A DNA stretch of 64,000 nt from Kofleriaceae bacterium. Its GTDB lineage: Bacteria; Myxococcota_A; Polyangia; Haliangiales; Haliangiaceae. Below the pieces are notes generated by a model. That model worked only from the letters and a program-made list of their open reading frames with translations. It ran no database searches and had not been told where the DNA came from. Location: assembly GCA_965215005.1 (NCBI GenBank), contig CBDCCZ010000003.1, forward strand, positions 64,001 to 128,000, in the 5' to 3' direction. Positions 4,825 through 46,308 of this stretch are shown here, in pieces (positions within the stretch are counted from its first letter, which is position 1; every line of letters starts with the position of its first letter). The position numbers and the translations under genes were made by a program.

Positions 4825-5234
4825 TCAGGTGTCTCCCTATCAGCAACGCAGATTACGTCGCGTTTCGCGGGCGAGCCGCCCGTCTGTGCACATTGCCGAG
4901 ACAACGACAGGTCCGTCAACGGAGACTTTGCCGGCAAGAGGTCCAGTCTAGGTGGAAATCTATTAGACGAGCGTAATTAGCCAGTTGGCGGAGCGCAGAT
5001 TCGCTGATGTCGCCCCACGTGTGAGCAATTATGCTCATCCCGAAGGTTAGTCACCCCACAGACGTTACGCGCGCCGCAATAACGCACTTCGTTTGTCGTA
5101 AGCAATGACACAAATCATCGCGAAGCAAGGGTACAGCAGGGCCGTTTGTGCCGGTAGGTGAGTGGTTGCCACAGCTCGGTACCGCGGTTGCGTCCCGAAG
5201 CCACAGGTTCTCTGTAACGGGCAATCCGTTCGCC

Positions 5235-5265
5235 AAAAAAAAAGCCGCCGGATTGCTCCGGCGGC
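5235..5265 (-). terminator. Intrinsic terminator of di-heme copy 2
   Basis: GCCGCCGGA / GCAA loop / TCCGGCGGC stem followed by U9 on the minus strand, 30 nt after the stop. Confidence 0.85.
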
Positions 5266-5295
5266 CTCTTCGATCGAGTCGAAGGTGGGGAGAGA

Positions 5296-7089
5296 TTACA
5301 ACGTCTTCATGTACTCGATGACTGCCATGCGCTCGGCGTCGGAAAAGTCGGTACCCCAATAGTGGCCACCGTTGCCGTTGCCGACTTGGGTTGTATCGAA
5401 GAGCGCCGCGTTCTTCTTGTCTCTGGTGTCGAGACCGACGCGGACCGGGTCGAACTTCTTGCTACCAACGTAGAACTGCGCAGACCGCTGCTCGGGCGGC
5501 AGTAGCAGCTCGTACAGCGAGGGCACCGAGCCGTTGTGCAGGTAGGGAGCCGTGAAGACGGCGCCGTTCAGCGGTCGGGCCCTATAGGTGGTCAGCTGCA
5601 CCTGCGTCGGACGGAGCGGCTCGCGGAATCCGAGATACGCGATCTTCTCAGCGTCGGTGAGACCGTTCTCAGCAAAGAAGCGCTTGATGAGAAGCTGACC
5701 TGAGATGTTGATGAGCGCCGCTGCAGACGCCTTGCCATCCCCGCCGACGAGGCCCTGCGCTTGAGCAATGGCGGTAAACGGGCCTGGGAAGGCCTTGCGA
5801 GTCGCGAAGGAGACCGCGGCGGTCGGATCCGTGCCGAGGAGTCCCTGCGGAGAAACTTCGCCGTTCGGCCCCGGAAACAGCGGCGTGCTGAAGTTGGTCT
5901 TGGCGAAGGTCTTGCCGTACGCGTTGGGATCCGTGCGCGGCTGCGGGTCGAGCGTGTGGCAGCTGGCGCAGTTCTCCGCATACAGCGCCGCGCCCTGCGA
6001 GGCAAGCTGCTGATCGATGGCACCGAACAGCTCCTCGGGCCATGCCGGCGACTGAAGCGACTGCACCCAACCCTCGAGGGCGTCGAGGTTCTCGACGTTC
6101 GCGCTCGACTCGACGATCAAGCCGTAGGGATTGCTGAGGTCGAGCGTGTTCTGGGTGAACGTTCCGGTGGCCTGCCCCACGTTGCGGCCAATCGGGCTGT
6201 GCACCGAAGAATTGTACTGTACCCACTCGAAGTCGGACGTGTTCCAAAGGTAGGGGAACTGCGTCGGCGCAATGGCTGCTTGGCAGTTGCGCGGATCCTC
6301 GAAGAGAGCGCAAACGACTTCGTTGCCGATGATCGTGAACGCATCCGTACGACCGGGGCCATGAGGGCTCTGGCCGCGGCTGCGCTCTAGACGCGCCACC
6401 CACCAATCGCGCGCCTCATTAATCTCGACGAGAAGCTGGCTGCGCTCAGCGTTGCCGGCATTGCCCCCGAGGACGTTGTTTGCGAAGCGCTCGAACTTGC
6501 GACTGTCGTCCAACGTAGCCTGAAGAGACGCAAGAATGGCCTCTTGCAGTTGCTCGAGATCGGCAAGGCTCTGACCACCGTCAATGCGGACGGCGCGGCC
6601 CTTATACTCGAGCTCTCCGGTGTGGCAGCCCGCGCAGGTGAGGCCGATGTAATCGCCTCCGGCGAGATCGACGTCGCGCGCGAAGCCAACCGGTAAGCGG
6701 TCAGGGTTAGCCTCCGTGGCCTCGTCCTCGACTAGATAGCCCATCGCGCGGATGTTCTTTGGATCGCGCAATAGCTTTTTCTTATCGGCTTGCTCCAAGT
6801 GAAGAAACCACTTATAGGGGAGCATGCGCGAACCCTCAGACGTCTGATAGAACGCTGCTCGCGTTGCTGCGTCCCAGCCTTGCTCCAAATACACGACTTG
6901 CTTGCCGCCACGATCCCCTTTGGCAGCCGCGTTCTCCGTTAGAAAGCCGTCGTCCGAGGTGGACTCGGCCGCACAGCCCGTGAATGCGATGGCGGCCGCG
7001 GCCAGCCCAGAAACTGCGGCATGGCGCTTGAGACCACCCGCAAGGCCACCGACCGTGCGGGAGCCTACCACTCGACGCTCTTTGAACAT
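5296..7089 (-). CDS. Di-heme c-type cytochrome, RoxA-like lipoprotein (copy 2, paralogue of 3043-4824)
   Basis: CAGCH and CASCH; APYLHNGSVP; colinear with copy 1 over most of its length; AAGGAGG RBS before ATG 7089; lipobox FTGC. Confidence 0.85.
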   Translation of the reverse strand: MFKERRVVGSRTVGGLAGGLKRHAAVSGLAAAAIAFTGCAAESTSDDGFLTENAAAKGDRGGKQVVYLEQGWDAATRAAFYQTSEGSRMLPYKWFLHLEQADKKKLLRDPKNIRAMGYLVEDEATEANPDRLPVGFARDVDLAGGDYIGLTCAGCHTGELEYKGRAVRIDGGQSLADLEQLQEAILASLQATLDDSRKFERFANNVLGGNAGNAERSQLLVEINEARDWWVARLERSRGQSPHGPGRTDAFTIIGNEVVCALFEDPRNCQAAIAPTQFPYLWNTSDFEWVQYNSSVHSPIGRNVGQATGTFTQNTLDLSNPYGLIVESSANVENLDALEGWVQSLQSPAWPEELFGAIDQQLASQGAALYAENCASCHTLDPQPRTDPNAYGKTFAKTNFSTPLFPGPNGEVSPQGLLGTDPTAAVSFATRKAFPGPFTAIAQAQGLVGGDGKASAAALINISGQLLIKRFFAENGLTDAEKIAYLGFREPLRPTQVQLTTYRARPLNGAVFTAPYLHNGSVPSLYELLLPPEQRSAQFYVGSKKFDPVRVGLDTRDKKNAALFDTTQVGNGNGGHYWGTDFSDAERMAVIEYMKTL

Positions 7090-7401
7090 CCGAATCGCCT
7101 CCTTAGACAACAGCATCTCGTCGCCAATGGTTGTGCAACGTGCCGTCGCGAGGAGCACAATGAGGGGTTCGGTCTAGTTTCGTCAAGACGGCTGCCTGTG
7201 TGGCCAGTACCGTGAATTCGAAGGGATCCTCGCAACCCCTCTGGATGCCTCATGGTTCACAGGTTCGTCACCATTATGATTTGTTTATTCCGGCCAAAAT
7301 CGCCATGCAAACATCGTAGTTGTGCTCACCTACGTCACAGTCACGCCTGCACGAGCCCGCAGCGTCGACTCAAGTGGACCCGACGCCGCGGGATTCATGA
7401 C

Positions 7402-7447
7402 GCAGAAATCCGCCGCCCCGATGCGGGCAAGGGCGGCAGATTTCTGC
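7402..7447. repeat. 17-bp inverted repeat (intergenic hairpin)
   Basis: GCAGAAATCCGCCGCCC ... GGGCGGCAGATTTCTGC, one mismatch, 12-nt loop. Confidence 0.6.
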
Positions 7448-7480
7448 TGCTCAGGCGCCCCCTTTGGCGTCTCCCCAAGA

Positions 7481-7526
7481 GATCGTTGTTTTTCTAGTGG
7501 TTCACGACTTCGCCGTGAACCACTAG
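7481..7526 (-). repeat. CTAG-palindrome REP-like element, copy 1
   Basis: Minus strand CTAGTGGTTCACG-GCGAAGT-CGTGAACCACTAG-AAAAACAACGATC; matches 27026-27078 and 53878-53930. Confidence 0.85.
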
Positions 7527-10500
7527 CTCATCCGAAGGCGCGCTCGATCGGTGTCTGTAAACGCCGCCACCGCTGCTGCAGCGCCGAGCTCACGCGCCCA
7601 GGACAGGAACCGAGCCAACGTGTTCTCGGTTTCCTCACCGCAGTTGCCCTCGTGGCGATCGATCAGCACCCGGGCCCGCATGCCGTAGAAGGATGCCCAC
7701 GTGGCGCGAACATCGTCAGAGTAATCCTCGAGCTGCTGCAGATAACGGCGCGCCCGCGGCACGTCGTCGAGAGCAAGTGCTATGTCGATTCCTTCAGTGT
7801 AGACCGGTAGCACGTTGAACGCCGCCGGCAGGCGCAGTGCGTATGCCTCGCTGCGATCCAGCGCCCGTTGCCGCTCCGCGGGCTCCTCGCTCGTCCGGGC
7901 CAGCAGTAAATACGCGTCGGCGCCGCCGAGGAGGCCATGACCATCTTCGGCCATTCCGCATGCCTCAGTGATGACCTCGATAGCTTCGCCGAAGCGACCG
8001 GCGGCAACCAGCGCACGCGCCTTGGTCGCCAATGAGATACAGATCAACCGCGGCAAGCGCACCCGCCGGCTGGCCTCTAGCATGTTCAGCGTCACGGCCA
8101 GTGCCTCTTCATGAGCTCGAGGCTCACGAAGGTAGAGACTATAGATGTGGCCTGTGATCGCAATTTCCCGCGCCAAATCTTCGGCCTGCGCAAGCTCATA
8201 TGCAGTCCGAGCAACCTGCTCGCCACGCTGCCAATCGAGTAGAAAATAGCCGAGACCGGCGTCGACGGAGCTATTGATCACGAAAGCCGCGGCGTCGCCG
8301 AGCTGCTCCGCAAGCGTCTCGGCCGCCGAAAACTGCTCACGTGCAGCGGACAGCTCGCGAATCATCATTAGCGCGTCGCCAATGCCGCTCGTCGCCCGCA
8401 GCTCAGCCTGGCGGTCTCCCACGGCGATGGCCCACTGGCGCGCTCGCTCGTGGTGCGATCGACATCCCGCAGCATCTCCTCTGGCGAAAGCGGCGTTGCC
8501 TCGCAGATTGGCAACTCTTGCCAGCTCGCTCATGAGCTCCCAGCGCTCTGCGATCTGCTCCGCGGCATCTAAATGCGCGGCGATAAGCTGTGCATCTCCG
8601 CCGAACGCGCGGGCCATCGCGGCCAAACCGACGTAAATCTTCGCCCGCAGCTCATCGGAGGCTCGGTCGTCCCGATCCTGCAAAACCGCCAGCGCATCCT
8701 CGTAAATGGCTCTGGCGCGCTCGAACGCGAGCTGCCGCTCGGCCTCCGCGGCAAACTGCAGTGCATACTGCGCGGCGCGAAGAGAGTCGCCACCGGCGGT
8801 GAAATGATGCACCAGCGCCGCTGTCGGCGTATCCGGGTGCCCTTCCAACGCCAAGGCCAAGCGCAGGTGATGATCCTTGCGGCCCATGGGCTCGATTGCC
8901 TCGAGCAATGCGGCACGAATCGCAGCGTGCGCAGATTCGATGCTCATGCTGCTCGTGAGCGAGGAGGTAGCAACGACACCGGCAGCGCGGAGCTCGAGCG
9001 CCGCCCGTTCGCGATCTTCTGGCTCGAGCACCAGCGCAGCGCCCAGCACGACCACGGGCACCGGCTCACCGGCAACCACGACCATCTCCGCCATCCGCTG
9101 AGCGACACCGCCGAGGGCGCGCACGCGCTCGCGAACGGCTTCGTGAAGGTTCCAATCCGCGGCTCCGCCCGCCGCAGCCACATGAGCCGCAAGCTCGATC
9201 AGAAATAGCGGCGATCCCGCGGCAGAGGCCCAGGCACTATCATCCTGACGCGCGACCCCAAACTGCTCGACTAGACGCCGCTGCGACGCTACATCGAGCG
9301 GCCCAAGCTCCAGATGGACAGCGGAGCTCATCCGCGCATCCGTGGGCAGGGTGCGACTGAGCACCATGAGCAGAACCGGCGCGTCCATCGCCGAGAGCGC
9401 ATCGAGCAGCTGTGAGCTCGCCTCGTCTGACCATTGCCAATCATCGATGCACATCAGCAGTGGTCGCTTGCGCGCACACGCGGCGATGACTGCGATCAAG
9501 CGCTCTACCGCCACCGCCCGCGTATGCTCGGGCGACGCTGCCTCTATCAACTTGCGGGCTGGATCCAGTCGTCGAAACACCGGGAACAAATGGCCTACCC
9601 ACGCCGCAGCGTCGCCAATCAGCTCATCGCGGCTGTCGCCATGATGCGAGGCGATGTACAGCGTGAGCTCGTCCATCAGCCCATCAAAGCCATTGTAAGC
9701 CAGACTCTCCCGCTCGTGGCAACGGCCCATGAAGACGACTGGTGAGTTATCGACCCGCGAGAGTTTGTCTATTAGCTCGTGTAGAAAACGTGTCTTACCG
9801 ATACCAGCCTCGCCGCTCACGCGCACGAGAGTGGCTTGAGCCGACGCAGCGACGCTGCGATAACACTCCACGAGTTGCGCAAGCTCGCGCTCGCGACCGA
9901 CGAACTGCCGAGCTCGCCAGTTTTGTCGCGGTGGCGGCAGGTCGAAGGCCGTGAGGAGCTCACTGGCCTGCGGCCTGGCCGCAGGAGACGGGGCGAGCAA
10001 GCGATTGCACAACTCGACGAGGTCGGTCGGCAAGTTGGCCGTGAGCAGGTTTGGATCGATGGGCGTCAAGCCGCCGCACTTGGCCGATAGAATGCTCATC
10101 GTCGGCCCAACGTACGGAGCGGTGCCAGTGAGCGCAGCGTAAAGCAGCACACCTACCGCGTACCAATCGCTTGCCGGCTCGGGCGTGCCGCCCGCGGCTT
10201 GCTCCGGCGCCATATATGCGACCGTGCCGGCAGTGCGATCGTGCAGCCCGACTCGTCGCGCGCGGGGAAGCTCTGCGACCACGCCGAAATCCGTGATCAC
10301 AACGCGACCATCCCGCCGCACGAGAACATTCGACGACTTGATATCGCGATGGACGATATCGGCCTCGTGAAGTGCAGCGAGGCCACTGACGAGCTGGCGC
10401 ATGGCTTCGCGCAGCCGCTCGACGTCCACGACCTCATCGACCGTGGGACGCGTATCGGGAACCGCTGGCAGCGCGATTCGCGAAAGTAGCGTCACGGGAT

Positions 10501-10912
10501 CGCCGAGGATGACACTCGTTCCATCGCCGCCAACATCCCGGGCGGTGGTTCTGGTGGCGGTCTGCATCGCGACCATGCTCGCGACATCGGTGACCGACGC
10601 CGCGGGCGGATTGCGCCCCGCGCGCACATACGAAAGGAAGTCGCCAGCGTCGGCAACCTCCATGGCCAGATACCAGTTGCCGTCCTCGCAGGCGAGGTCG
10701 TAGAGGGCCACGACGTTGGGGTGCGCGAGATCCCCCACCGCCCGATACTCGCGCTTGAAGCGATACAGGTTGACCGGATCGAAGGTTCGCAGGGTCTTGA
10801 GCGCTACAGGAACCCGTCGCTGCTCATCGAACGCTTCGAATACCACGCCCATCCCGCCAGCACCGAGACGGCCACGAATGGTGAAGCGAGAGTTCTGGGG
10901 CAAGGGTTTCAT
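7523..10912 (-). CDS. Ser/Thr protein kinase fused to AAA/STAND ATPase and TPR-like helical region
   Basis: GAGGMG, VALK, HRDIKSSN, DFG, GTVAYMAPE; FVGRERE, Walker A GEAGIGKT, Walker B IDDWQWSD; Ala-rich helical C-terminus. Confidence 0.9.
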   Translation of the reverse strand: MKPLPQNSRFTIRGRLGAGGMGVVFEAFDEQRRVPVALKTLRTFDPVNLYRFKREYRAVGDLAHPNVVALYDLACEDGNWYLAMEVADAGDFLSYVRAGRNPPAASVTDVASMVAMQTATRTTARDVGGDGTSVILGDPVTLLSRIALPAVPDTRPTVDEVVDVERLREAMRQLVSGLAALHEADIVHRDIKSSNVLVRRDGRVVITDFGVVAELPRARRVGLHDRTAGTVAYMAPEQAAGGTPEPASDWYAVGVLLYAALTGTAPYVGPTMSILSAKCGGLTPIDPNLLTANLPTDLVELCNRLLAPSPAARPQASELLTAFDLPPPRQNWRARQFVGRERELAQLVECYRSVAASAQATLVRVSGEAGIGKTRFLHELIDKLSRVDNSPVVFMGRCHERESLAYNGFDGLMDELTLYIASHHGDSRDELIGDAAAWVGHLFPVFRRLDPARKLIEAASPEHTRAVAVERLIAVIAACARKRPLLMCIDDWQWSDEASSQLLDALSAMDAPVLLMVLSRTLPTDARMSSAVHLELGPLDVASQRRLVEQFGVARQDDSAWASAAGSPLFLIELAAHVAAAGGAADWNLHEAVRERVRALGGVAQRMAEMVVVAGEPVPVVVLGAALVLEPEDRERAALELRAAGVVATSSLTSSMSIESAHAAIRAALLEAIEPMGRKDHHLRLALALEGHPDTPTAALVHHFTAGGDSLRAAQYALQFAAEAERQLAFERARAIYEDALAVLQDRDDRASDELRAKIYVGLAAMARAFGGDAQLIAAHLDAAEQIAERWELMSELARVANLRGNAAFARGDAAGCRSHHERARQWAIAVGDRQAELRATSGIGDALMMIRELSAAREQFSAAETLAEQLGDAAAFVINSSVDAGLGYFLLDWQRGEQVARTAYELAQAEDLAREIAITGHIYSLYLREPRAHEEALAVTLNMLEASRRVRLPRLICISLATKARALVAAGRFGEAIEVITEACGMAEDGHGLLGGADAYLLLARTSEEPAERQRALDRSEAYALRLPAAFNVLPVYTEGIDIALALDDVPRARRYLQQLEDYSDDVRATWASFYGMRARVLIDRHEGNCGEETENTLARFLSWARELGAAAAVAAFTDTDRARLRMS

Positions 10913-11195
10913 CTTAACGCAAGCGGCGCCGTTGCACGCAGTCAGCTCGTGCTGCTGCTAAATCAGAAGACCTCGCAGCAGCAGCGAGAGCAGCGCTAGC
11001 GACACCTCTGGCGAGCAGCAAAAGTCGGCCGGTCAGCGGCTGGGAGAAGGTGGCAAAACAATCGTCGTTGCATTTTACTCGTTCAGCCATCACAGTAACT
11101 TCCGATACCTAAAAATACACGAGAGAATTCACCGCGAGTGCTGAATTGCTGAGGCCACGCTGCACAGCCGCCTGATGCGGCCATCGAGGAAGTAC

Positions 11196-12917
11196 ATGTC
11201 ACCGTTGCAACGACCCATCACCGATCTTGGCACTGCGGCCACACACGCCCCTCTCAGTCATCACCTCACGAGCCTGCTAGAAGCACTGGGCATTCGCCAC
11301 GCATTTGGCGTCTCTGGCGGCGCCATCGGCGCGCTTTGGCACTCTCTTCACCAAAGTGACATCGAGGTCATGCACTTCCGTCATGAAGCGGGCGCCGCGT
11401 TCGCGGCAATCGAGAGTTACTTCGTTACCGGTGTTCCGGCGGCGGTCTTCGTGACCAGCGGCCCGGGACTCACCAACGCACTCACAGGCGCCTACGCCGC
11501 TCGTTACGACGGCGCCAAGCTACTACTCTTGTCACCAGCAACGGCAGCGAGCGGTCGCGGGCGGCGCGCATTTCAGGAAACCAGCTCTGCAACGCTACCC
11601 TCGGGGCTGTTCGAAGATGGACCGCTCTTCGACTATGCGACGACGATCAGCTCAGGCGACGAGCTCGGACAGGTTGCCCGGCGGCTAGCGATGGGGTTCT
11701 CGCGGCCAGGAACCTTCGTGGCGCATGTGAGTGTACCTACGTCGCTGCAAACCGCACTCACGGAAGCACGGGCTTGGCCATCCGTCCGCGTGGCGCCGGC
11801 CGCACCATCGGAAGAGTCAGTAAAGGAGTGCGCCTCTCTCCTCAACGAGGCTCCTTTTGTCATTTGGGTGGGGCATGGTGCGCGTGATGATGCTCCATTG
11901 GTTCGCGAGCTCGCCCAACAAAGCGGCGCGGCGGTTATGTGCTCACCCCGCGCGAAAGGGATTGTATCGGAGCGGGATCCGCAGTACTTGGGAGTAACCG
12001 GCTTTGCGGGTCATGAGCAGGTTCTCCACTACATGAGAGAGTCGCGACCGGCTCGGGTGTTGGTACTCGGAAGTCGCCTCGGAGAGCTCACGTCGTTCTT
12101 CGATCAAGAGCTCACTCCAGCCGAGGGCTTCATTCACGTCGACGTCGACGCATCGGTCTTCGGCGCCGCCTATCCCGATAGCGAGACACTCGGCGTCCAA
12201 GCTGACATCGGTGCGTTCCTCCGCGCGCTCCTGCCACATATCGAGAAGCGAGTACCATCCGGCTTACCTCGCCCACAGCCCGAGCCGATGCGTCTCATGG
12301 CAGAAGGACGCGGCGTCGACCCGCGAGCGGTCATGCGTGCCATCCAAGACGTGGTCGTCGACGAGAGCGAGGGAATGGTGATTACCGAGGCCGGGAACTC
12401 GTTTGCGTGGGGCACGCACTGTCTCCGCTTCGAAGACGCCAAGCGCTACCGAGTCAGCACCGGATGCGCCGCCATGGGCCACGCCGCCACGGGTGTACTG
12501 GGTTCGGCGTTGGTCGCCGACCGCCCCTCCGTAGCCGTGGTAGGCGATGGTGCCATGTTGATGAACAGCGAGGTCAGCACAGCCGTTCACTACGGGATTC
12601 CAGCAATCTGGGTAGTGCTTAACGACGCAAGGTACAACATGGTTTGCCAGGGCGCAGCGCAGCTCGGCCTGCGCGGCCTCGACGCAGAGATACCCGCGTG
12701 CGATTTTGTGCAAATCGCCCGTGGGATGGGAGCCAGCGGCATTCGTGTGGAGCGCGAAGATGAGCTCGAAGCGGCCCTACGAGCAGCGCTTGCCGCCAAC
12801 GCGCCTTACGTCATCGACGTGCAGATCGATCATCAGGTTGCGGCACCCACCGGCAACCGCAATGCTCACTTGGCCAGCCAAGGCATCAATCGAAACTTAC
12901 AGGATGGAGCGCTGTGA
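11196..12917 (+). CDS. scyA: ThDP-dependent acyloin synthase, ScyA-like (acetolactate synthase family)
   Basis: FGVSGGA, HFRHEAGAAFAA.E.YF, GPGLTNALTG, RGR.A.QETS, F.AH.S.PT..QT as I recall them from cyanobacterial ScyA; ThDP motif GDGAMLMN...VLND; GAGGA RBS before ATG 11196 (alternative start 11175); coupled to a scyC-like gene. Confidence 0.75.
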   Translation: MSPLQRPITDLGTAATHAPLSHHLTSLLEALGIRHAFGVSGGAIGALWHSLHQSDIEVMHFRHEAGAAFAAIESYFVTGVPAAVFVTSGPGLTNALTGAYAARYDGAKLLLLSPATAASGRGRRAFQETSSATLPSGLFEDGPLFDYATTISSGDELGQVARRLAMGFSRPGTFVAHVSVPTSLQTALTEARAWPSVRVAPAAPSEESVKECASLLNEAPFVIWVGHGARDDAPLVRELAQQSGAAVMCSPRAKGIVSERDPQYLGVTGFAGHEQVLHYMRESRPARVLVLGSRLGELTSFFDQELTPAEGFIHVDVDASVFGAAYPDSETLGVQADIGAFLRALLPHIEKRVPSGLPRPQPEPMRLMAEGRGVDPRAVMRAIQDVVVDESEGMVITEAGNSFAWGTHCLRFEDAKRYRVSTGCAAMGHAATGVLGSALVADRPSVAVVGDGAMLMNSEVSTAVHYGIPAIWVVLNDARYNMVCQGAAQLGLRGLDAEIPACDFVQIARGMGASGIRVEREDELEAALRAALAANAPYVIDVQIDHQVAAPTGNRNAHLASQGINRNLQDGAL

Positions 12918-13867
12918 ACAACGAACGCAACACGGTAGCCGTTTCCGCGTACATCGATACCAGCCTAGATGCATCGCTGGCGTACATGCAGAGGCTAGAG
13001 CACCTCAACGATTGGACGCTGTTTAGTCGCATGGTCGAAAAGGTTGACGACTACACCTGGCTAGGCACCGCGTCCTGCTATCAAAGCCAGCTCTACTATC
13101 ATTTGCGCACCATCGATACGCCTCGCTTCACCGGTATCGAGTGGCACTGCGGGCTCGAGTATCAGAACTACTTTCAGGTCTACCCCGCGCTCCTGTTTCC
13201 GCCGAGCTACGTTCGTCCCGGCTCGCAAGAAACGGGCAGCTACCTGCACTGGGTGAGCTTTGTAGATCCCCGGCGCCGCACAGGAATGATGGAGCAGGCA
13301 GTAGAGCTCGTTCACCGTTCCGAGGTCCGGTCGCTCAAGGCGATTCTCGAGCGCAAGGCAGGCCTCTCGCGAGCCGCCGTTGGCGAGTGGGACATTCGCA
13401 GCCAGACGATCTACATAGACGCGCCACTTGCCGACGGCGTGGCCTACCTCGCCGACGTTCGCAACGTTGCCGAGTGGGCCCACCTGCTCCGCGCCGACGG
13501 CCAGCTAGGCAGCGATCGCGGCGTCTTCCGCGACGAATACGATCAAGTCGTAGAGGTCTCGACCAGCGTGCAGGAGCTAGGCAAGTACTTCATCGTCGAG
13601 GAAGATCGGCATTTCCCCCAGCATGAGAAGTGGGAGCGTTGCCCAACTCTACTCATTCCCTGCTCCTACGCATTTGGTGACCCCGAAGCCACTGGCTACC
13701 TGCAGCACCGCATCACCTTCTGGCCACGAACGGAGACGCCGACGCGGGGCCGGCTCCTGCTCGAGGACTACGCTGCAGAAAGCGTCAATATCAAGCGATT
13801 GATCGAAGCTCGCGCCGGGAACCTCGAGACCTTTGCCCGCGGCCTGAGCTACCTGCCCCGCACCTAG
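12914..13867 (+). CDS. scyC: ScyC-like cyclase/decarboxylase (two tandem SRPBCC-like domains)
   Basis: SAYI, WTLFSRM, TWLGTAS, LYYH, GIEWHCGLEY..YFQVYP.LLFPP, HW.SFVDP, VH.SE.RSLK..LERKAG match remembered ScyC; second repeat TIYIDAP...EWA; GTGA overlap with upstream stop. Confidence 0.8.
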   Translation: MNNERNTVAVSAYIDTSLDASLAYMQRLEHLNDWTLFSRMVEKVDDYTWLGTASCYQSQLYYHLRTIDTPRFTGIEWHCGLEYQNYFQVYPALLFPPSYVRPGSQETGSYLHWVSFVDPRRRTGMMEQAVELVHRSEVRSLKAILERKAGLSRAAVGEWDIRSQTIYIDAPLADGVAYLADVRNVAEWAHLLRADGQLGSDRGVFRDEYDQVVEVSTSVQELGKYFIVEEDRHFPQHEKWERCPTLLIPCSYAFGDPEATGYLQHRITFWPRTETPTRGRLLLEDYAAESVNIKRLIEARAGNLETFARGLSYLPRT

Positions 13868-14069
13868 GTCGGCGCTCCGAAATAGATGGTCCGTTCTAGG
13901 CGACTGTGCATCCGTGCTGGCGGCGTTGCCTTGCCAGCCCGGCGCACAGACGCCGATCTTCTGACCATTTATTCCTGCGCGCCTCCTAATCTCATTAGAG
14001 TCATTTCGCAAGTCCCCTGCGACGGGCCGGTGTCGACGTCGTCGCCAACCTACTGCCAGGAGCCAAGAC

Positions 14070-14699
14070 ATGAGCATTCGAGTATTTGGAGTCGCCGAGA
14101 GCGCGTGTACCCAGAAGGTTCTACTCACACTTGCCGAGAAAGATGTCAGCTACGAGCTCTGCCGCGTCGACCTTCTCACCGGAGAGCATAAGCAGCCGAG
14201 CCATCTAGCGCGCCATCCCTTTGGGGTAGTGCCAGCCATCGACCACGACGGCTTCGAGCTCTACGAGTCGACTGCCATCATGCGATATCTCGACGCTCGC
14301 TTCCCCGACCCGCCGCTCACCCCATCGTCACTCCAGCAGCGAGCGCGGATGGATCAGATGATCAGCGTCGAGCAATCTTACCTGTCGCGCCACACCAACA
14401 CGCTCATCGTGCAGCTCCTGCTAGCCCCTACCCGGGGCGCCACGCCCGACGCAACCGCCGTGGGTCAAGCCCGCGAAGGCCTTGCGACGTGCGCGACGGT
14501 TCTAAATGACGTCCTCGCGCAGACCCGCTTCCTGGCTGCCGACGAGCGCTCTCTGGCCGATCTGGCCTGTCTGCCGTATGTGGCTGCGGCAATGCGCCTA
14601 GAGGCTCTCCCACCCATAGAACGATCCCCGCACCTGGCCCGCTGGCTGGGCGAGCTCACGGAATCGAAGAGCTGGCGCGCCCTAACGCCCCGCGGCTAG
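14070..14699 (+). CDS. Glutathione S-transferase (phi-like)
   Basis: GEHKQPSHLARHPFGVVPAI, LYESTAIMRYL, SLADL; AGGAG RBS. Confidence 0.9.
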   Translation: MSIRVFGVAESACTQKVLLTLAEKDVSYELCRVDLLTGEHKQPSHLARHPFGVVPAIDHDGFELYESTAIMRYLDARFPDPPLTPSSLQQRARMDQMISVEQSYLSRHTNTLIVQLLLAPTRGATPDATAVGQAREGLATCATVLNDVLAQTRFLAADERSLADLACLPYVAAAMRLEALPPIERSPHLARWLGELTESKSWRALTPRG

Positions 14700-15379
14700 C
14701 TCTTGCCCGTGCGCTTCTCGGCCACGCCCACGTAGATGGCGTGGCTTCGACCGCCCTTGCCAGCGTGATGCACCGAGGTCGTGAATCCAGCGTTGGCAAA
14801 GCGACGGGCGAAGGCGGCGTCAGGCTCTTCGGACCACACCGCGAGCACGCCGCCCGGGCACAGAGCCCGGCGGGCCCGCGCCAGCGCTTCACGACTATAG
14901 AAAGGATCATCGCGCTGCTGCGTGACCTCGTGAGGTCCTTCATAGAGGTCGAGGATGATCGCGTGGAGCTGCCCGGGCTCAGCGCGGGCGATGACGGCGG
15001 CTACATCGTCTAGCTCGACCCGCACCCGCGAATCGCCCACAGCGTCGTCGGTGAGTGTCGCCCAATGCGTGCGACACCACTGCAGCACCTCCGGCTGCAG
15101 CTCGGCCACGGTAACGCGCGCAGCGGCGGGCAACGCATCGAGCGCTGCACGGAGCGTGTATCCCATGCCAAGACCGCCGATGAGGATGCTTGGAGCCGCC
15201 ACGGCCGGCGTCGCCGCGCACGCGATCGTCGCCAGCGCCTCTTCGGAGCGACGCGCGGTGGAGGTCATGAGCACGCGTCCATCGATGACGAGCAGAAAAT
15301 CGCCGTCCCCGCGCTGCCGCAGCTCGAGCATTCCCTCGCGGGTCATCACTGTCTCGAGGGTCTTCCATGGACGCGCCAT
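14696..15379 (-). CDS. Spermidine synthase-like SAM-dependent transferase
   Basis: ILIGGLGMGYTLRAAL, VTVAEL, AIILDLYEGP, L.PGGVLAVWS. Confidence 0.8.
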   Translation of the reverse strand: MARPWKTLETVMTREGMLELRQRGDGDFLLVIDGRVLMTSTARRSEEALATIACAATPAVAAPSILIGGLGMGYTLRAALDALPAAARVTVAELQPEVLQWCRTHWATLTDDAVGDSRVRVELDDVAAVIARAEPGQLHAIILDLYEGPHEVTQQRDDPFYSREALARARRALCPGGVLAVWSEEPDAAFARRFANAGFTTSVHHAGKGGRSHAIYVGVAEKRTGKS

Positions 15380-15508
15380 TGGCGCACCATAACGCAGCCG
15401 ACCCGCTCCTCGGCAGCGCTCGTGGCTCAGCGAAGTCGCGCGAGAGACGCGCCGTCCCAGCGGCGCGAGCTCGTCGCCGACCGGCCACTCTTGTTACCAT
15501 CGCGATTC

Positions 15509-17475: not shown

Positions 17476-18519
17476 ATGCACCCTACTCAATCGCTTCGCT
17501 TTTTAGCGCTGGCCTTGGCCGGCGTAGGCAGCTCCGTCGGCTGTGCCGAACCGCTCTCGAACGACGCCACTGCTCTGGCGGCAACCGCCGATAGCGAGTC
17601 CGGCGCCGGCTCGATCACGTTCGCGGTACCGCGCCGCACCCGCGTCCAATTCGCAACGCTTCCGGCCGGACCGATCAACATCGAGCTCGAGCTCCGGTCC
17701 AGCACCGATCTCGATCTGCAAGTATTCGACGGCCAAACCCCCGTGGTCCAGTGGCCTGCCGGTGTGCTTGCCGGCGAGACCGGCGCCGCGGTGGAATACG
17801 ACGGCGCACTCATCACCTATAGCGGGTACGGCGGCGACGGCAGCGGCACCGGCAACGAACGGCTCCACATCGGCGGCAACCTCGCCAGTCCCCTCACCGT
17901 CCACGTATTCGGCTATTCCGCCGGCGTTGCGACCGTGAATTACGAGTTTGGCCAGAGCGGCGTTGGCGCCAGCTGTGGCAGCCGCGGCCTGCCGCCGTGC
18001 GCGCCCAACCTGGTGTGCAAGAACGGCGACGACGGAGCCATCGAGCGCGACGTGCCCGGCACCTGCCAAACCGAGACCTGGTGCGAGAGCGAAGCGAGCG
18101 CCGCCAGCGACTGTGAAGGCCTCGTCCATGTCGCCGTGCCGGGCCGCTGGGGCTGCGAATCCTTCGAGTGCGTATGGCGCACCGATGAGGACGCCGCCCC
18201 GCCGCAGGCGTGCTCGCTCTATGGCGATGCATGCGCCGCCGGAAGCGTTTGCGACTACGAATGCCCCACCGCCACCAACTGCGGCATCAATCCGCAGGGC
18301 ACCTGCCGCCTCGAGTGCACCTCGGCCGTCGACTGTGACGCCGGCCAATACTGCACCACCACCGGCGTGTGCCGCGCCGATAGCACCTGCGGAACGCCAG
18401 CCGACTGCACCCAGCCCGACAACGACTGGGACTCTGGCGCCTGCATCGCCACCCGCCGTTGGGTGCCGACCTGCGAAGCCCAGAGCTGCGGCTTCGGCTG
18501 CGCTCCGCTCGAGCCGTAA
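17476..18519 (+). CDS. Secreted lipoprotein with PPC-like beta domain and Cys-rich C-terminal repeats
   Basis: Lipobox SVGC; DLDLQV...GNE.L.I...V.VFGY; CGSRGLPPC followed by many disulfide-type Cys modules. Confidence 0.7.
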   Translation: MHPTQSLRFLALALAGVGSSVGCAEPLSNDATALAATADSESGAGSITFAVPRRTRVQFATLPAGPINIELELRSSTDLDLQVFDGQTPVVQWPAGVLAGETGAAVEYDGALITYSGYGGDGSGTGNERLHIGGNLASPLTVHVFGYSAGVATVNYEFGQSGVGASCGSRGLPPCAPNLVCKNGDDGAIERDVPGTCQTETWCESEASAASDCEGLVHVAVPGRWGCESFECVWRTDEDAAPPQACSLYGDACAAGSVCDYECPTATNCGINPQGTCRLECTSAVDCDAGQYCTTTGVCRADSTCGTPADCTQPDNDWDSGACIATRRWVPTCEAQSCGFGCAPLEP

Positions 18520-18647
18520 GCGCGATCGAACCAGACGGCGGTGACCTCGGCATCGCCGCGCCGCGCTCCCGATCAGCCGCGGACCGCGATTCGGGAGCGC
18601 GCTCGCTTCCACTCGAATTTGGTGGGTGTTACAGTGAGTTAGCGCTC

Positions 18648-21600
18648 ATGTCGATGCGCGATACCCTCACGCCGAGCAACCCCCGAACAACCGACGTGCT
18701 GAGCGCGCAACTGGAAGCGTTTCGCAGGAACCCGACCGACGGAGCGCTGTTTCACGAGCTTCGGGCGGAGCTGCGCAAGAGCGGCCAAGCAGAACCGCTT
18801 GCCGATATCGGCGAGCTTCACGCGCCGCACGAGCGCGATCGGCTGCGCGCCGCCGAAATCTGGAGCGAGGCCGGCGAAGCGCGGCTGGTGCTCGGTCACG
18901 AGCAACAGGGCGAAGCGGATTTGCGCCGGGCTCTCGAGCTCGACCCGGCGAACGAACGCGCGGCGGCACGCCTCACCGAGCTGCTACTGACCGCGGAGCG
19001 ATTCGCAGAGGCTGCCGAGGTTCTCGAGGTCGAAATCGAGGAGCTCGAGCGCCGCGCTGGCGCCTCAAGCGACAGCGCCTCACTCAACGCTCGACGCGGC
19101 CAGCGCCATCGCACGCTGGCGCAGCTTTGGGACGAACGACTTGGCCGCGTTGACTTGGCCCTGCAACACTGGCAGTGCGCCTGGCAGCTCGACCCCGAAT
19201 GCGGCGACGCACTCGAAGCCGCGCGCAACATTTATACGTCGCTGGGCGACGACGCCATGGTGGCCCGGCTTTACGAAGCCGAAATTGCCGCCTTGGCAGC
19301 CGATGCGCCGGCCGAGCGCCGGGCCCGCCTCGAGCACCAGCTCGGGCGAATCTTGCACCGCCAAGGACGAGCAGCGGACGCCGCTGAGCGCCTCGAGCGC
19401 GCGCTCGAGCTCGCGCCGCGCTCCCCACAAATTCGCGAGGCCCTCGCCGAGGTCTATGCCTCCAATGAGCTCGTTGGCGACGAGCAGCATCAGCACCGCG
19501 CTAGCGAGCTGTTCGTCGAGCTCGGCCGGCATCGCCTCAGCACCCAACAAGGCGAGGCCGCGATCGTCTATCTGCGGCGCGCGCTGGGCGTCGATCCATA
19601 TTCGCAAGAAGGCAGCGCCGCGCTCGAAGGAGCGCTTGCCGCCGAAGAGCGCTGGGACGAGCTCGAGCGGCTGTATCGCCACCGCTCGAGTCTCGCCGCG
19701 GATCCTGGTGAGCGGCGCGCCATCACCCACAAGCGCGCCGAGCTCTATGAACGCCAGCTCGGCGATCGCGATGCTCTCAAGACGGCGCTTGCTGAGCTCG
19801 TCGCCGAAGAGGCGCCCGGCGGCGACAGCGCGGCGCGGCTGCGCGATTTGTACCGGCAGGACCAGGACTGGGCGCTGCTCGCCGGCCTCATCGAGCGCGA
19901 GCTGCCGGCCGTCGAGCACGATCGCGCGCGGTTGTGCGCCGAGCTTTTAGAGCTCGCGACCATCGCACGCGAGCATTTGAGCGATCGCGATCGCGCCGCT
20001 GAGCTCTTGCACCGCGTGCTCACCATCGATTCACGCAACGCCGAGGCGCTGGCTCGCTACGGCGAGCACTTCCGCGAGCGCCGCGATTGGCGCGGTTTGG
20101 CCGACTTGCTCGAGTTCGCCCTCGACAATGCCCGCGAAGATGGCGCCACCGCGGAAGAGCTGGTGCGCCAGCTCGAAGACCTCGCCAAGCTCGCTGAGCT
20201 GCGGCTCGGCGACGTCGAGCGAGCCATCAACGCCTGGCGTCGCATTCAGGAACTCGAGCCCGACAACCGTAAAGCGGGCGAAGCGCTGCGGCGGCTGATG
20301 TCGCAGGCAAAGATGTACGAGTCGCTCGTGGGAATGCTCGAGGGCGAAGCAGAGCGCGCGCAGAGTCCCGTCGAGCGCGCCGAAGCGCTGCGCCGCATCG
20401 CTCAGGTGTATCGCGAGCGGCAGGTCAATCCGCGCCGCGCCATCGCGCTGTATGAAGAGGTTCTAGGGCTGTTTCCCCGCGATGAGGCGGTGCTCAAAGC
20501 GCTTTCTGAGCTCTATGAGCGCGAAGGCGATGACGCGGGTCTGGCGCACACGCTGCGCCGGCAGCTCGATCTCGACCTCGAGAAGATGCAAGCCGAGGTC
20601 GACGGCACGCGCGCGATGACGGCTCGCGATTGGCCGGTTGCCAAGCGTTCCCAGCGGCTCACCGCGCTGCGCCGGCTGGCTTCGATGTACGAAGATCGCC
20701 TCGATGACCCCGAAGGCGTGGTGTATGCGTGCACCGGCATCCTCGAGCTCATGCCCGGCGATCGCGATGCGCTCGATCGCATGGAGCGCGTTCTCGACAA
20801 AGCCGGCGATGCCGAGCGTCTCGAGCAGACGCTGGAATATCACGCCTCGTCGGCAACCGGTCCCGCTGAACGCGCCAAAGTCCTTCGCCGCCTAGCGCGG
20901 CTCGCTGCCGATCAGGGCGATGAGGTCAAGGCGATGGAGCGCTGGGAAACCACGCTCAAGGCGGCACCGAGTGATGCGGAGGCGCTGGAAGCGCTGGGCG
21001 CACTTTACGAAGCCCATCAGCGGTGGGGGGAGCTGGCAACCGTGCTCGAGCGCCAGCACGCTTCGCAGAAGCTGCCCACCCCCGGCTCGGCCGCTGCGGC
21101 GCTCGCCGCGGTCGAGCTCAAGCGTTACGCCCACGTGGTGGATGCCGAGCTCGGTGATACCCCGCGGGCGCTGCGCGCGTGGCAGCGAGTGCTCGAGGTT
21201 CAGCCGCGAGACCGGCAAGCACTCGATGCCCTCACGCGGCTCTACGAAACCGCCGGTCGGTGGCGCGACTTAGCCGAAATTCTGGCCACGCAAGCGCCGC
21301 TCTATGTCGACGATGAGCCGCAAAAGGCAGCGGCGGTGGGCCTGCGGCGAGCACGCCTTCTCGAGGAGCGCCTGGGCGCCCCCGCCGAAGCCGCCAAGGC
21401 GCTCGAAGCACTGCTCAGCGACCTCGACCCGGCGAACCTCGATGCTCACAAGGCGCTGCGCCGCCTCTATGAAGCACGCGGCGACTTCGACGCGGCGGTG
21501 CGGATCGCCGAGCGCGAGATGTATCTTGCGACCGAGCCCAGCGAGAAGATCGCTCGTGGGCTGGAAATCGGGCTTCTGTGCCGCGATCGCCTCAGCGACC

Positions 21601-27547: not shown

Positions 27548-27762
27548 GCATCCATCATGAAGCAAAACGCGGGCCCTAGGAAAGGCCCACCGAAGCGCCG
27601 CGCGCCGCTCCTTACCCGGGGCCGTGCGCCCCAGTTGTCGGCGTTGCTAAACATGTAGGTGACAGGCCCAGAGTTGCCCGCAAGGCGGCAAAGATTGGCG
27701 TTGTGCCGGCGGCCGCGGGTCAACATCGAGGCACCCGGCTTCCGCGCTGCTATGGTCGCGCC

Positions 27763-29121
27763 GTGCCACGCGCGCTTCGGTTACCTCCGGGACCTCCTGC
27801 CCGCCGCGGCGGCGTGCTTGGCAACGCGGCTTACTACCTGCGCTTCGTCGCCGACCCGCTCGCCTTCGTCGGCGCGCGCTTCGACCGTTACGGCGACCTC
27901 TACTGCGCGCCCAACCCCGATGGGCTGTTGTTCGTGTTGCGCCACCCCGATCACTTGCGCGAGGTGCTGGCGCAGAAGAGCGGCGTCTATCGCAAGACGC
28001 ATAGTCTGTTCGATCGGCTCGCGCGCGTGCTCGGTAACGGATTGGTAACGACTGACGGCGACGTATGGCGACGCCATCGGCGGATGATTCAGCCAGCGTT
28101 TCACCGCGACCGTCTCGAGGATTACGCCGAGCCCATCGTCGAGGAAGCCGAGCGGGCTACCGAGCAGTGGCAGAGCGGCACCATCCGCGATGTCGGCGCC
28201 GATCTGATGGCGCTCACGCTGCGCATCGTGAGCCGGCTGCTGTTCTCCCACGATGCCTCTTCCGACATCGCCACCGTCGCCGCGGTCATGGCGGAGTTCC
28301 AACGAGCCATCGCGCGTCCCGAATTGGCGCCGCCGTGGCTGCCGAGCCCGCAACGTCGGCGGATTCAGCGCGCCACCACCGCGCTGGATACGATGCTCTT
28401 CGGCATGGTCGATGCCCGTCGGCGCGCTTTGGCCGCAGGCGGTGAGCGGCCCCGCGATCTCTTACAGCGCCTCATCGATGCGGTCGATGAGCAAGATGGC
28501 GCGGGCCTCAGCCGCCAAGAGCTCCGCGATGAGCTGGTCACGCTGCTGCTCGCCGGCCACGAGACCACCTCGCACGCGCTGTCTTGGACTCTCTATTTAT
28601 TGGCCGAGCATCCCGCGGAAACCGCCTTGCTGACCGCAGAGCTCGATTCTCGGTTGCATGACAGAGTGCCGAAGCTCGCCGATCTCGCAACGCTGCCGCG
28701 TACCGGATGGGCCGTGGAAGAAGCGATGCGGCTGTATCCGCCGGCTTACATGCTCGCGCGTCGCGCGGCGGCCGATACCACCATCGGCGGCTATGAGGTC
28801 CCCTGCGGCAGCGAGATCACCATGTGGACCTATTTCACCCATCGCGATGCGCGGTGGTTTCCCGAGCCCACCGCCTTCCGCCCCACGCGGTTCGAGAGCG
28901 CGGCTCGGCAAGCGCTTCCCAAGCTCGCGTATCTGCCGTTTGGCGGCGGCCCACGCGCGTGCATCGGCGCGCAGCTCGCGCTACTAGAAGCTCGTCTGAT
29001 CCTCGCTTCGTGGCTGCGGCGGTGGCGTTTTGAGCGGCTACCTGAGCAGCAAGTGCAGCCGCAGCCGCGCATTACGCTGCGGCCCAAGCACGGCTTGCGG
29101 ATGCGCGTTACTCGCCGCTGA
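27763..29121 (+). CDS. Cytochrome P450
   Basis: LPPGP, AGHETT, EAMRLYPP (ExxR), FRPTRF, FGGGPRACIG heme ligand; start moved to GTG 27763. Confidence 0.95.
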   Translation: MPRALRLPPGPPARRGGVLGNAAYYLRFVADPLAFVGARFDRYGDLYCAPNPDGLLFVLRHPDHLREVLAQKSGVYRKTHSLFDRLARVLGNGLVTTDGDVWRRHRRMIQPAFHRDRLEDYAEPIVEEAERATEQWQSGTIRDVGADLMALTLRIVSRLLFSHDASSDIATVAAVMAEFQRAIARPELAPPWLPSPQRRRIQRATTALDTMLFGMVDARRRALAAGGERPRDLLQRLIDAVDEQDGAGLSRQELRDELVTLLLAGHETTSHALSWTLYLLAEHPAETALLTAELDSRLHDRVPKLADLATLPRTGWAVEEAMRLYPPAYMLARRAAADTTIGGYEVPCGSEITMWTYFTHRDARWFPEPTAFRPTRFESAARQALPKLAYLPFGGGPRACIGAQLALLEARLILASWLRRWRFERLPEQQVQPQPRITLRPKHGLRMRVTRR

Positions 29122-46301: not shown

Positions 46302-46308
46302 TGCTGTA

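Follow-up and report, generated by a model that had tools for sequence, protein, structure and literature searches.

Why does a myxobacterium carry, side by side, genes for the two enzymes that build the carbon skeleton of scytonemin, and what might it make with them? Scytonemin and the enzymes of its biosynthesis have been called exclusive to cyanobacteria, and the single exception named in the available part of PMC9796282 is Methylocaldum marinum, whose ScyC, with 53% identity to the Nostoc protein, is the sole non-cyanobacterial ScyC reported there and whose genome is stated to encode homologues of ScyA, ScyB and ScyC. The window analysed here, a stretch of 64,000 nucleotides, resembles Methylocaldum marinum in encoding a non-cyanobacterial ScyC at a similar distance, but differs from it in the ScyB homologue reported for the latter. 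A preliminary description of the window had proposed a minimal scyA-scyC operon that lacks scyB, lies in a non-cyanobacterial context, is fed by housekeeping aminotransferases and makes a monomeric cyclopenta[b]indole. The observation on which that proposal was built is confirmed by the present analysis, and its interpretation is partly supported.

Organization of the scyA-scyC locus

The gene for a thiamine diphosphate (ThDP)-dependent carboligase and the gene for the cyclase lie on the same strand (Table 1). As the preliminary description had stated, both open reading frames are present and joined by a GTGA overlap, and a glutathione S-transferase (GST) gene follows after a gap of 202 bp. 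The start of scyA was placed at ATG 11196, which is preceded by the ribosome site GAGGAAG at 11186-11192, with an in-frame alternative ATG at 11175. The junction of the two genes reads ...GGATGGAGCGCTGTGAAC, in which scyC starts at the GTG and scyA stops at the TGA of a 4-nt overlap, and a GGAG-type ribosome site is located 5-6 nt before this start. The kinase encoded by the divergent gene upstream of scyA is of the Ser/Thr and not of the histidine type and carries an AAA_16 domain.

Table 1. Features of the scyA-scyC locus, with positions in the window.
Feature	Position	Strand	Basis
Intergenic stretch, presumed promoter region, flanked by scyA and the divergent Ser/Thr-kinase gene	10913..11195	.	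Sequence read
scyA-type gene, ThDP-dependent carboligase, 573 aa, putative 'ScyA-related' lineage	11196..12917	+	Pfam, NCBIfam
GTGA overlap of scyC start and scyA stop (translational coupling)	12914..12917	+	Sequence read
scyC, predicted cyclase/decarboxylase, 317 aa, two SRPBCC domains	12914..13867	+	NCBIfam NF035924, AlphaFold
Spacer between scyC and the GST gene, 202 bp	13868..14069	.	
Glutathione S-transferase, 209 aa; membership in the unit doubtful	14070..14699	+	GST_N, GST_C

Consensus scans of 10800-15500 returned no promoter-like site, including no sigma-70-like site before scyA, and a single terminator-like site, which belongs to the kinase gene, with none between scyC and the GST gene. 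Rfam gave zero matches on 10500-15500. Searches for marks of mobility around the pair found no tRNA, and only short repeats at chance level. The preliminary description had recognised no trp/aro genes in the window. In agreement with this, the annotated open reading frames of the window include no supply genes of the trp, aro or tyrA kind, and tblastn yielded no match to such genes at window positions 3001-24000; no aminotransferase gene adjoins the pair. When 15 kb of DNA were searched against 30 genomes of the family, in which the genus is represented by this genome alone, only scattered gene-level matches appeared. Comparison of four regions around a SpeE-like neighbour revealed no other window gene in common, except a weak (32%) match to the Ser/Thr-kinase domain in one of them (L203).

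Family assignment of the cyclase and the carboligase

The product of 12914-13867, which the preliminary description had taken for ScyC, scored 480.7 bits on the ScyC model NF035924, for which the cut-off is 400. The match covers the model in full (1-312 of 312), and the score in the genome search was 480.3 bits. Its best match was a cyanobacterial ScyC at 62% identity, the nearest clusters in the ESM Atlas were likewise cyanobacterial ScyC, and all named matches among the 120 listed for each of the ScyA and ScyC searches were cyanobacterial. The family is isolated, with only 340 matches among 5.8 billion clusters. The AlphaFold model (pLDDT 91.8) consists of two helix-grip/SRPBCC domains, and the best Foldseek matches were StfQ and BexL, both di-domain aromatase/cyclases, together with DynU16 and the carbazole synthase CqsB2 (E values of 5e-9 to 7e-8 for StfQ, BexL and CqsB2); no similarity was detectable between the ScyC sequence and PDB chains. 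StfQ, BexL and CqsB2 thereby share the fold of the window ScyC but act on different substrates; CqsB2 likewise works downstream of a ThDP acyloin synthase. Conservation of 97% or more in 36 low-GC ScyC sequences applies to 107 columns, of which the window protein retains 96; several of the 11 deviations are like-for-like (L227I, I263L, K280R and Y234F), while N30H and Q241E occur in the window protein only, all 29 other high-GC sequences keeping the conserved residue. By its sequence, the protein is a true member of the ScyC family, with predicted cyclisation and decarboxylation activity.

The ThDP enzyme contains all three Pfam domains, TPP_enzyme_N, TPP_enzyme_M and TPP_enzyme_C. It scored 761 bits on the ScyA-related subfamily model NF035927 (positions 3-550 of 551) and 758.7 bits on the ScyA equivalog model NF035923, reaching neither the cut-off of 1000 for the former nor that of 1020 for the latter. 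The match to NF035923 begins at model position 58, which indicates that the canonical N-terminal extension of ScyA is lacking. That the enzyme is not an ordinary IlvB, as the preliminary description had supposed, is borne out by the 197 bits of the next-best family and by the tree, in which it groups with two low-GC loci, L115 and L116, and with the ScyA-related sequences; the acetolactate-synthase-like paralogues of the same genome scored at most 192 bits on the ScyA model. The enzyme is 53-58% identical to cyanobacterial proteins of the ScyA and ScyA-related types, and the best ScyA identity, 59%, was to locus L116. The nearest solved ThDP structures were BbmA and CsmA, on which the literature yielded no relevant paper. 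An intact cofactor motif, GDG-X24-ND, is located at residue 450. Of 178 highly conserved columns, the enzyme retains 158. Eight deviations, among them H261D, R375D and W302F, affect residues that show 97% or higher conservation in the low-GC set and are kept by all 29 other high-GC sequences. In the ScyA tree, a 95% branch unites all remaining ScyA and ScyA-related sequences, and the window enzyme, L115 and L116 fall outside it, towards the outgroup. Judged from these comparisons, the enzyme is a member of the ScyA/ScyA-related clade and apparently of its 'ScyA-related' lineage rather than a canonical ScyA. Given this lineage, for which we found no substrate determination in the literature, its keto acids may differ from those of Nostoc ScyA.

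Host genome and search for the remaining scytonemin genes

The host is a Kofleriaceae/Haliangium-like myxobacterium and not a cyanobacterium, in keeping with the non-cyanobacterial context of the preliminary description. The pair lies inside a contig of 388,595 bp with myxobacterial genes on both sides, which rules out mis-binning, and the pyruvate kinase of the window is 70-74% identical to proteins labelled Kofleriaceae, Haliangium or Myxococcales at NCBI. The GC content is 65.1% for the genome and 61.9% for the pair, the latter corresponding to the 10th percentile of 2.7-kb windows. Among sequencing runs, one contained the sequence, probably that of the source sample, and no RNA run was listed.

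The absence of a complete scy cluster elsewhere, on which the preliminary description depended, was found across the assembly (6.2 Mb, 92.8% complete). The best match to ScyB (NF035922, cut-off 600) reached 79 bits on another contig, a level of ordinary dehydrogenases, as sub-threshold matches were also obtained in 11 of 14 control genomes. The best scores were 30.5 bits for ScyD/ScyE (NF033206, cut-off 80) and 26 bits for ScyF (NF035926, cut-off 350), and EboE (NF035939) and EboC (NF035940) gave zero matches. At 92.8% completeness, and with 8,000 bases withheld, the absence of scyB is not absolute.

A Pfam search for tyrosinase gave zero matches, and the controls were equally without a match.

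Recurrence of the pair outside cyanobacteria

Neighbourhoods were surveyed for the best 80 ScyC loci in genomes (185 more lay beyond these) and for the 80 best metagenome loci, 40 of which have a GC content of at least 55% (high-GC) and 40 a lower one (low-GC). The gene scyB lies immediately 5′ of scyC in all 80 of the best genome loci and in 37 of the 40 low-GC metagenome loci. Among the 40 high-GC loci, scyA directly precedes scyC in 33, and scyB or scyDEF occurs in none. The scyA-scyC pair is therefore not unique but recurs in non-cyanobacterial metagenome contigs; we found no description of stand-alone scyA-scyC pairs in the literature. This recurrence, the 'ScyA-related' lineage of the ThDP enzyme and the separate origin considered below go beyond the preliminary description.

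A bare pair was seen in the window and in another myxococcote genome (G051), where the spacer is 11 nt; the other high-GC clusters carry additional genes. Supply genes in the 40 high-GC loci include trpG after scyC (16 loci), trpD and trpC (14), trpE (12), class II DAHP synthase (11), tyrA (11) and a class I/II aminotransferase (3). Clusters of one high-GC clade (H1) add trpG-D-C-E, class II DAHP synthase and tyrA, and those of another (H2) add P450, SRPBCC and cytochrome c genes, with the P450 directly after scyC. H1, H2 and G051 resemble the window in having scyA directly 5′ of scyC and neither scyB nor scyDEF; H1 and H2 differ from it in these additional genes, of which the window has none. 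A 657-aa open reading frame ('family 8') after scyC in clade H1 was rejected as an antisense artefact over trpG-D-C. Within the sampled Myxococcota, matches over the cut-off occurred in 2 of 401 genomes, with 1 of 401 in the class of the window and 1 of 225 in that of G051.

Phylogenetic placement and comparison with known clusters

In the concatenated tree, the window pair joins L115 and L116 at 100/100, on a terminal branch of 1.16 changes per column, and in both this tree and the ScyA tree the high-GC loci and G051 form a separate clade. The grouping with L115 and L116, apart from the main high-GC clade, indicates a separate acquisition, and the window pair has an origin distinct from that of the main non-cyanobacterial clade. 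When a single clade for all high-GC ScyC was put to an AU test, p was 0.026; this group had been defined after a tree had been seen, and the concatenated tree is for this reason preferred as the basis.

The cyanobacterial core scyA-scyB-scyC, as in Nostoc punctiforme, shares with the window a homologous carboligase and cyclase (53-62% identity) on the same strand, with A before C. Unlike it, the window has no scyB between the genes, with none found genome-wide, no scyD/E/F, ebo, trp/aro/tyrA or dedicated two-component pair nearby, and a myxobacterial host. Both window proteins have their nearest relatives (62% identity for ScyC) in L115 and L116, which are low-GC, cyanobacterial-type loci with an NF035927 enzyme, and in L115 the ThDP gene also lies directly 5′ of scyC, with a 13-nt gap. 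They differ from the window in carrying ScyB in both loci, ScyE in L115 and DAHP synthase and P450 in L116, and in a GC content of 41-45%, as against 62% for the window pair. Furthermore, the ThDP enzyme of L116 passes the NF035927 cut-off (1017 bits), whereas that of the window does not.

Proposed pathway and alternative explanations

Taking these results together, we consider it probable that the pair is a horizontally acquired and long-resident two-gene operon that keeps only the carbon-skeleton enzymes of scytonemin biosynthesis in a Kofleriaceae/Haliangium-like host. For the reactions of ScyA and ScyC we follow the available part of PMC4870267, in which Balskus & Walsh 2008/2009 and Malla & Sommer 2014 are cited and which gives [M+H]+ 278.12 for the ScyC ketone and 276.10 for its oxidised form. 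By homology with the Nostoc enzymes, the ThDP enzyme would couple two aromatic 2-keto acids, most likely indole-3-pyruvate and p-hydroxyphenylpyruvate, into a labile beta-keto-acid acyloin, and the translationally coupled ScyC would cyclise and decarboxylate this intermediate to a tricyclic cyclopent[b]indol-2-one. Since no ScyB was found in the genome, indole-3-pyruvate would need general transaminases, and keto-acid supply by aminotransferases is indirectly supported by the class I/II aminotransferase gene beside the cluster in the three related high-GC loci. The trp, DAHP synthase and tyrA genes of high-GC loci, and the ScyB of L115 and L116, give a further hint as to the substrates. Because ScyD/E/F, EboC and EboE were likewise not found, the product should remain a monomeric cyclopent[b]indolone, perhaps spontaneously oxidised, rather than a dimeric sunscreen.

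This proposal is weakened by the long branches of both proteins, by deviant residues that could mean altered specificity, by the scores of the ThDP enzyme under both curated cut-offs and by the lack of Trp/Tyr supply genes in the window. The same points, together with the slightly better score on the ScyA-related than on the ScyA model and the place of the enzyme with L115 and L116 outside the 95% branch, would suit an altered chemistry, in which other 2-keto acids (phenylpyruvate, two identical aryl-pyruvates or an aliphatic partner) are joined and ScyC closes a different carbocycle, not the skeleton of the scytonemin monomer. We regard such a chemistry as rather unlikely, given that L115 and L116, the closest relatives, keep the tryptophan dehydrogenase ScyB in their clusters, which indicates an indole-pyruvate substrate, and that the conserved columns of ScyC are largely retained in a family so isolated.

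It is less likely still that the pair is only the central part of a more extensive pathway encoded nearby, in which the GST conjugates or isomerises the product and a downstream SBF-family transporter, an alpha/beta hydrolase or the P450 at 27703-29121 perhaps takes part. The GST gene does share the strand and follows scyC with no terminator-like site in between, and the related H2 clusters have a P450 directly after scyC. However, GST homologues (E<=1e-5) were found in none of 161 other ScyC loci, so that the place in the pathway which the preliminary description had offered this gene was not upheld, and the G051 pair has no adjoining GST. The best NCBIfam match of the protein was maiA, at 81.7 bits under a cut-off of 171. 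The window P450 lies 13.8 kb away, past a gene for a 2856-aa TPR protein, and is 24-31% identical to the cluster P450s, and the plus-strand unit is closed at 14699 by a convergent gene (14696-15379) whose stop overlaps that of the GST gene. Lastly, the patchy distribution in Myxococcota and the long branches might suggest that the pair is left over, unused, from a transferred scytonemin cluster and drifts to loss, or that it is a cyanobacterial assembly or binning artefact, but this is very improbable in view of two intact reading frames with their conserved columns and cofactor motif, the preserved coupling of the scyA stop and scyC start, and a GC content largely adjusted to the host (the closest loci from cyanobacteria have about 41-45%).

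Implications for scytonemin-type enzymes

The two-gene operon proposed here may belong to a wider pattern. We put forward, tentatively, that at least two independent non-cyanobacterial ScyA/ScyC lineages without ScyB or the periplasmic dimerisation genes make undescribed monomeric metabolites of the cyclopent[b]indole type, and that in the myxobacterium, as a predatory or social organism, the free monomer serves as a signal, an antibiotic or a redox-active pigment and not as a sunscreen. One lineage would be the large high-GC clade, with its own supply operon or with P450/cytochrome c tailoring, and the other the bare myxobacterial pair, derived from a 'ScyA-related' variant cluster. If this is true, the high-GC clade, whose position in the tree adjoins canonical cyanobacterial ScyA, matters for the rooting of the trees with which the origin of scytonemin is dated. 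The non-cyanobacterial loci provide additional outgroup and sister lineages for dating the evolution of the pathway. As a route to cyclopent[b]indolones, the scyA-scyC pair would be small, with two genes only, and easy to express, and a ScyC gene without a preceding ScyB gene would give genome mining a handle that flags candidate unexplored indole natural products. As the window and about 40 related high-GC contigs show, the skeleton-forming enzyme pair circulates widely beyond cyanobacteria, in stripped-down or re-equipped form.

The scyA-type gene and scyC in a myxobacterial genome

The scyA-type gene (gene 1) and scyC (gene 2) of the pair are joined by a GTGA overlap, in which the GTG start of gene 2 lies on the TGA stop of gene 1, with GGATGGAG immediately 5′. 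GAGGAAG precedes the ATG at 11196, a likelier start for gene 1 than the alternative in-frame ATG at 11175. Gene 2 scored 480.7 bits over the whole of the NCBIfam ScyC model NF035924 (cut-off 400), and gene 1 scored best on the ScyA-related model NF035927 (761 bits, cut-off 1000) and the ScyA model NF035923 (758.7 bits, cut-off 1020), both under cut-off, its next-best NCBIfam family reaching only 197 bits. The pairing of a ThDP enzyme with ScyC in the preliminary description was thus borne out, and existing NCBI models would name both proteins. An AlphaFold model built from the ScyC alignment (pLDDT 91.8, pTM 0.90) has two helix-grip domains and matched best, by Foldseek, the di-domain aromatase/cyclases StfQ and BexL, DynU16 and the carbazole synthase CqsB2, in agreement with the earlier label "two-domain SRPBCC-like"; by sequence, no PDB chain was detectable.

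The pair lies within a 388,595-bp contig of a 6.2 Mb assembly (92.8% complete). Other genes of the window are myxobacterial in look (Ser/Thr kinase, 2856-aa TPR protein, PEGA, FG-GAP/ASPIC and trypsin-like proteins), and its pyruvate kinase shares 70-74% identity with proteins labelled Kofleriaceae, Haliangium sp. or Myxococcales at NCBI. The GC content of the pair, 61.9% in a genome of 65.1%, falls at the 10th percentile of 2.7-kb windows, mildly atypical for the host, yet far from the 41-45% of the nearest relatives. Profile searches of this genome gave at best 79 bits for ScyB (cut-off 600; comparable sub-threshold matches occurred in 11 of 14 control genomes), 30.5 bits for ScyD/E (cut-off 80) and 26 bits for ScyF (cut-off 350), and no match for EboE or EboC; a tyrosinase search gave no match here, nor in its controls, and so carries no weight. 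The complete scy cluster elsewhere that would have counted against the preliminary description was not found, and the case that the rest of the scytonemin pathway is absent is strong but, with 7% of marker genes missing and 8,000 bases outside the searched sequence, not absolute.

Coordinates and composition of the loci described (window positions unless a locus is named)
Feature	Location	Strand	Remarks
Di-haem cytochrome c peroxidase genes	3043-4824; 5296-7158	-	tandem paralogues
Repeat	7381-7528		~148 bp
Ser/Thr kinase, 1129 aa	7523-10912	-	AAA_16 domain; divergent, upstream of gene 1; signalling protein
Gene 1, ScyA-type ThDP enzyme	11196-12917	+	intact ORF; three Pfam ThDP-enzyme domains
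Gene 2, ScyC	12914-13867	+	intact ORF
GST	14070-14699	+	GST_N and GST_C; 202 bp 3′ of scyC
TPR protein	18459-27029	+	2856-aa ORF
Type III polyketide synthase locus	45150-47996	-	
Signalling protein, genome G051	L088 6445-8379	-	divergent hybrid histidine kinase
ThDP enzyme and ScyC-like gene, genome G713	L206 (G713:C33) 3277-6362	-	
Signalling protein, genome G713	L206 4209-6362	-	receiver domain fused to ThDP enzyme
Low-GC metagenome locus	L116 1-9436		DAHP synthase, ScyA-related (1017 bits, over cut-off), ScyB, P450, unknown 349-aa ORF, ScyC
Low-GC metagenome locus	L115 229-6620		ScyE (opposite strand), ScyB, ScyA-related, ScyC; 13 nt between last two
H1 loci (metagenome)	L172, L176-L178, L181-L194		GC 64-72%
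H2 loci (metagenome)	L138, L144-L146, L148-L150, L152, L154, L156, L169, L170, L175, L179, L180		GC 55-71%

The scyB-less arrangement outside cyanobacteria

Two criteria, GC content and the gene immediately 5′ of scyC, served to sort the ScyC loci. In GTDB species genomes, the best 80 of 265 ScyC-encoding stretches were all low-GC cyanobacterial loci with scyB in that position (80/80), and 75 of these additionally carried scyD/E/F. The metagenome set, the best 80 of 129 stretches, comprised 40 loci with GC <55%, in 37 of which scyB lay 5′ of scyC (the others being L115, L116 and one truncated contig), and 40 with GC 55-72%. Among these high-GC loci scyA lay immediately 5′ of scyC in 33, two had something between the two genes, five were cut off upstream, and scyB and scyD/E/F were found in none (0/40). 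Therefore, the scyB-less pair is the rule outside cyanobacteria. In G051, a 4.6 Mb genome of the same phylum, scyA and scyC are separated by 11 nt. The ScyC gene is rare within Myxococcota: a phylum-wide sample of 401 genomes contained two with a match above the cut-off, and samples of 401 from the window's class and 225 from G051's class contained one each.

The H1 cluster, which is non-cyanobacterial, brings its own genes for Trp/Tyr supply but lacks scyB and scyDEF; it is ordered scyA-scyC-trpG-trpD-trpC-trpE together with class II DAHP synthase and tyrA. With gene counts in both cluster types bounded by contig ends, trpG immediately followed scyC in 16 high-GC loci, accompanied by trpD and trpC in 14, trpE in 12, class II DAHP synthase in 11, tyrA in 11 and an upstream class I/II aminotransferase gene in three. 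In H2, the genes after scyA-scyC encode a cytochrome P450 (14 high-GC loci), one or two single-domain SRPBCC proteins (9/14) and cytochromes c (5/14). A ~1000-aa GDSL-lipase and CBM60 protein often lies ahead of H1, and a PEP-CTERM protein near one H2 locus. In contrast to both, the pairs of the window and of G051 are bare, with neither gene set beside them.

Neighbouring genes

The GST had been suggested as a possible conjugating or detoxifying partner, a role that gained no comparative support: no homologue was found at E≤1e-5 in 161 other ScyC loci, nor in the neighbourhood of the G051 pair. Its stop overlaps that of a convergent SpeE-like methyltransferase gene, and no promoter or terminator was callable in the scyC-GST spacer. 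We treat the GST as a neighbour, not a system member.

Each of the three Myxococcota genomes analysed (this genome, G051 and G713) has a signalling protein directly at the ThDP gene, reminiscent of the two-component pair that adjoins scy clusters in cyanobacteria. G713, of the same family, has a more distant ScyC-like gene, 47% identical to that of the window and, at 372 bits, below the cut-off. It directly follows a ThDP enzyme with only ~30% identity to ScyA and a fused N-terminal response-regulator receiver domain. Genes for histidine kinases, a sigma-54 activator, PAS and SpoIIE proteins surround the two, which appear to form a carboligase-cyclase pair under phosphorylation control.

Elsewhere in the window, the peroxidase genes have RoxA-like domains and ~72% DNA identity to each other. 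The MITE/REP-like repeat between a peroxidase gene and the kinase gene 3′ end has at least nine further copies on other contigs of the genome (91-95% identity). The TPR ORF consists nearly entirely of TPR repeats, its 5′ part being conserved across many of the family's genomes (64-70% DNA identity). The type III polyketide synthase (chalcone/stilbene-synthase-like), adjoining an FAD-dependent monooxygenase, appears to form a small biosynthetic locus of its own.

Predicted chemistry

As outlined in PMC4870267 (citing Balskus & Walsh and Malla & Sommer), ScyB yields indole-3-pyruvate, which ScyA joins to p-hydroxyphenylpyruvate; from the labile beta-keto acid so formed, ScyC produces a tricyclic ketone ([M+H]+ 278.12) by cyclisation and decarboxylation. 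With scyABC in E. coli, the oxidised monomer (276.10) builds up. By homology, the window's pair would catalyse both middle steps, using keto acids from general metabolism, and, since ScyD-F and Ebo proteins are absent, the pathway is expected to stop at the monomer, its predicted product. For the pair family, substrates derived from aromatic amino acids seem probable because relatives' loci carry Trp/Tyr genes (H1), an aminotransferase (three H1 loci) or ScyB (L115 and L116). Among columns at least 97% conserved in low-GC, cyanobacterial-type sequences, the window's ScyC keeps 96 of 107 and its ThDP enzyme 158 of 178, the GDG-X24-ND cofactor motif being intact. Some changes (in ScyC, for instance, N30H and Q241E; in the ThDP enzyme, H261D, R375D and W302F) fall at positions invariant in every other sequence compared, so specificity may be altered.

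Origin of the pair

In the ScyC tree, the window's protein groups with L115 and L116 (SH-aLRT 99) and with one that carries the label Moorea sp. SIO1F2. The ScyA tree again brings the window, L115 and L116 together, here on the side of a 95% branch that faces the outgroup, with cyanobacterial "ScyA-related" paralogues next; all 18 other high-GC sequences, including G051, form a single clade (99) beside canonical cyanobacterial ScyA. The concatenated ScyA+ScyC tree (36 rows) joined the window with L115 and L116 at 100/100 and united all high-GC rows in 0 of 200 bootstrap trees; on ScyC alone, a single high-GC clade, a group named after a tree was seen, was rejected by the AU test (p = 0.026). 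Long branches (1.16 changes per column) lead to both of the window's proteins. The pair would have descended from an L115-type variant of the cyanobacterial cluster, scyB being left out at acquisition or lost later, in an event independent of the large high-GC clade and old enough for composition to near that of the host. From the patchy distribution, and with trees that have no reliable root, we infer transfer from cyanobacterium to myxobacterium.

L115 and L116 are low-GC variant clusters that pair the ScyA-related paralogue, not canonical ScyA, with ScyB and ScyC, which suggests, from gene content, a role for this unexplained cyanobacterial paralogue. PMC9796282 reports one non-cyanobacterial ScyC, in Methylocaldum marinum, which is said to have homologues of ScyA, ScyB and ScyC; full-text searches of the main texts of openly accessible papers gave no account of scyA-scyC pairs lacking scyB, or of H1/H2 clusters, outside cyanobacteria.
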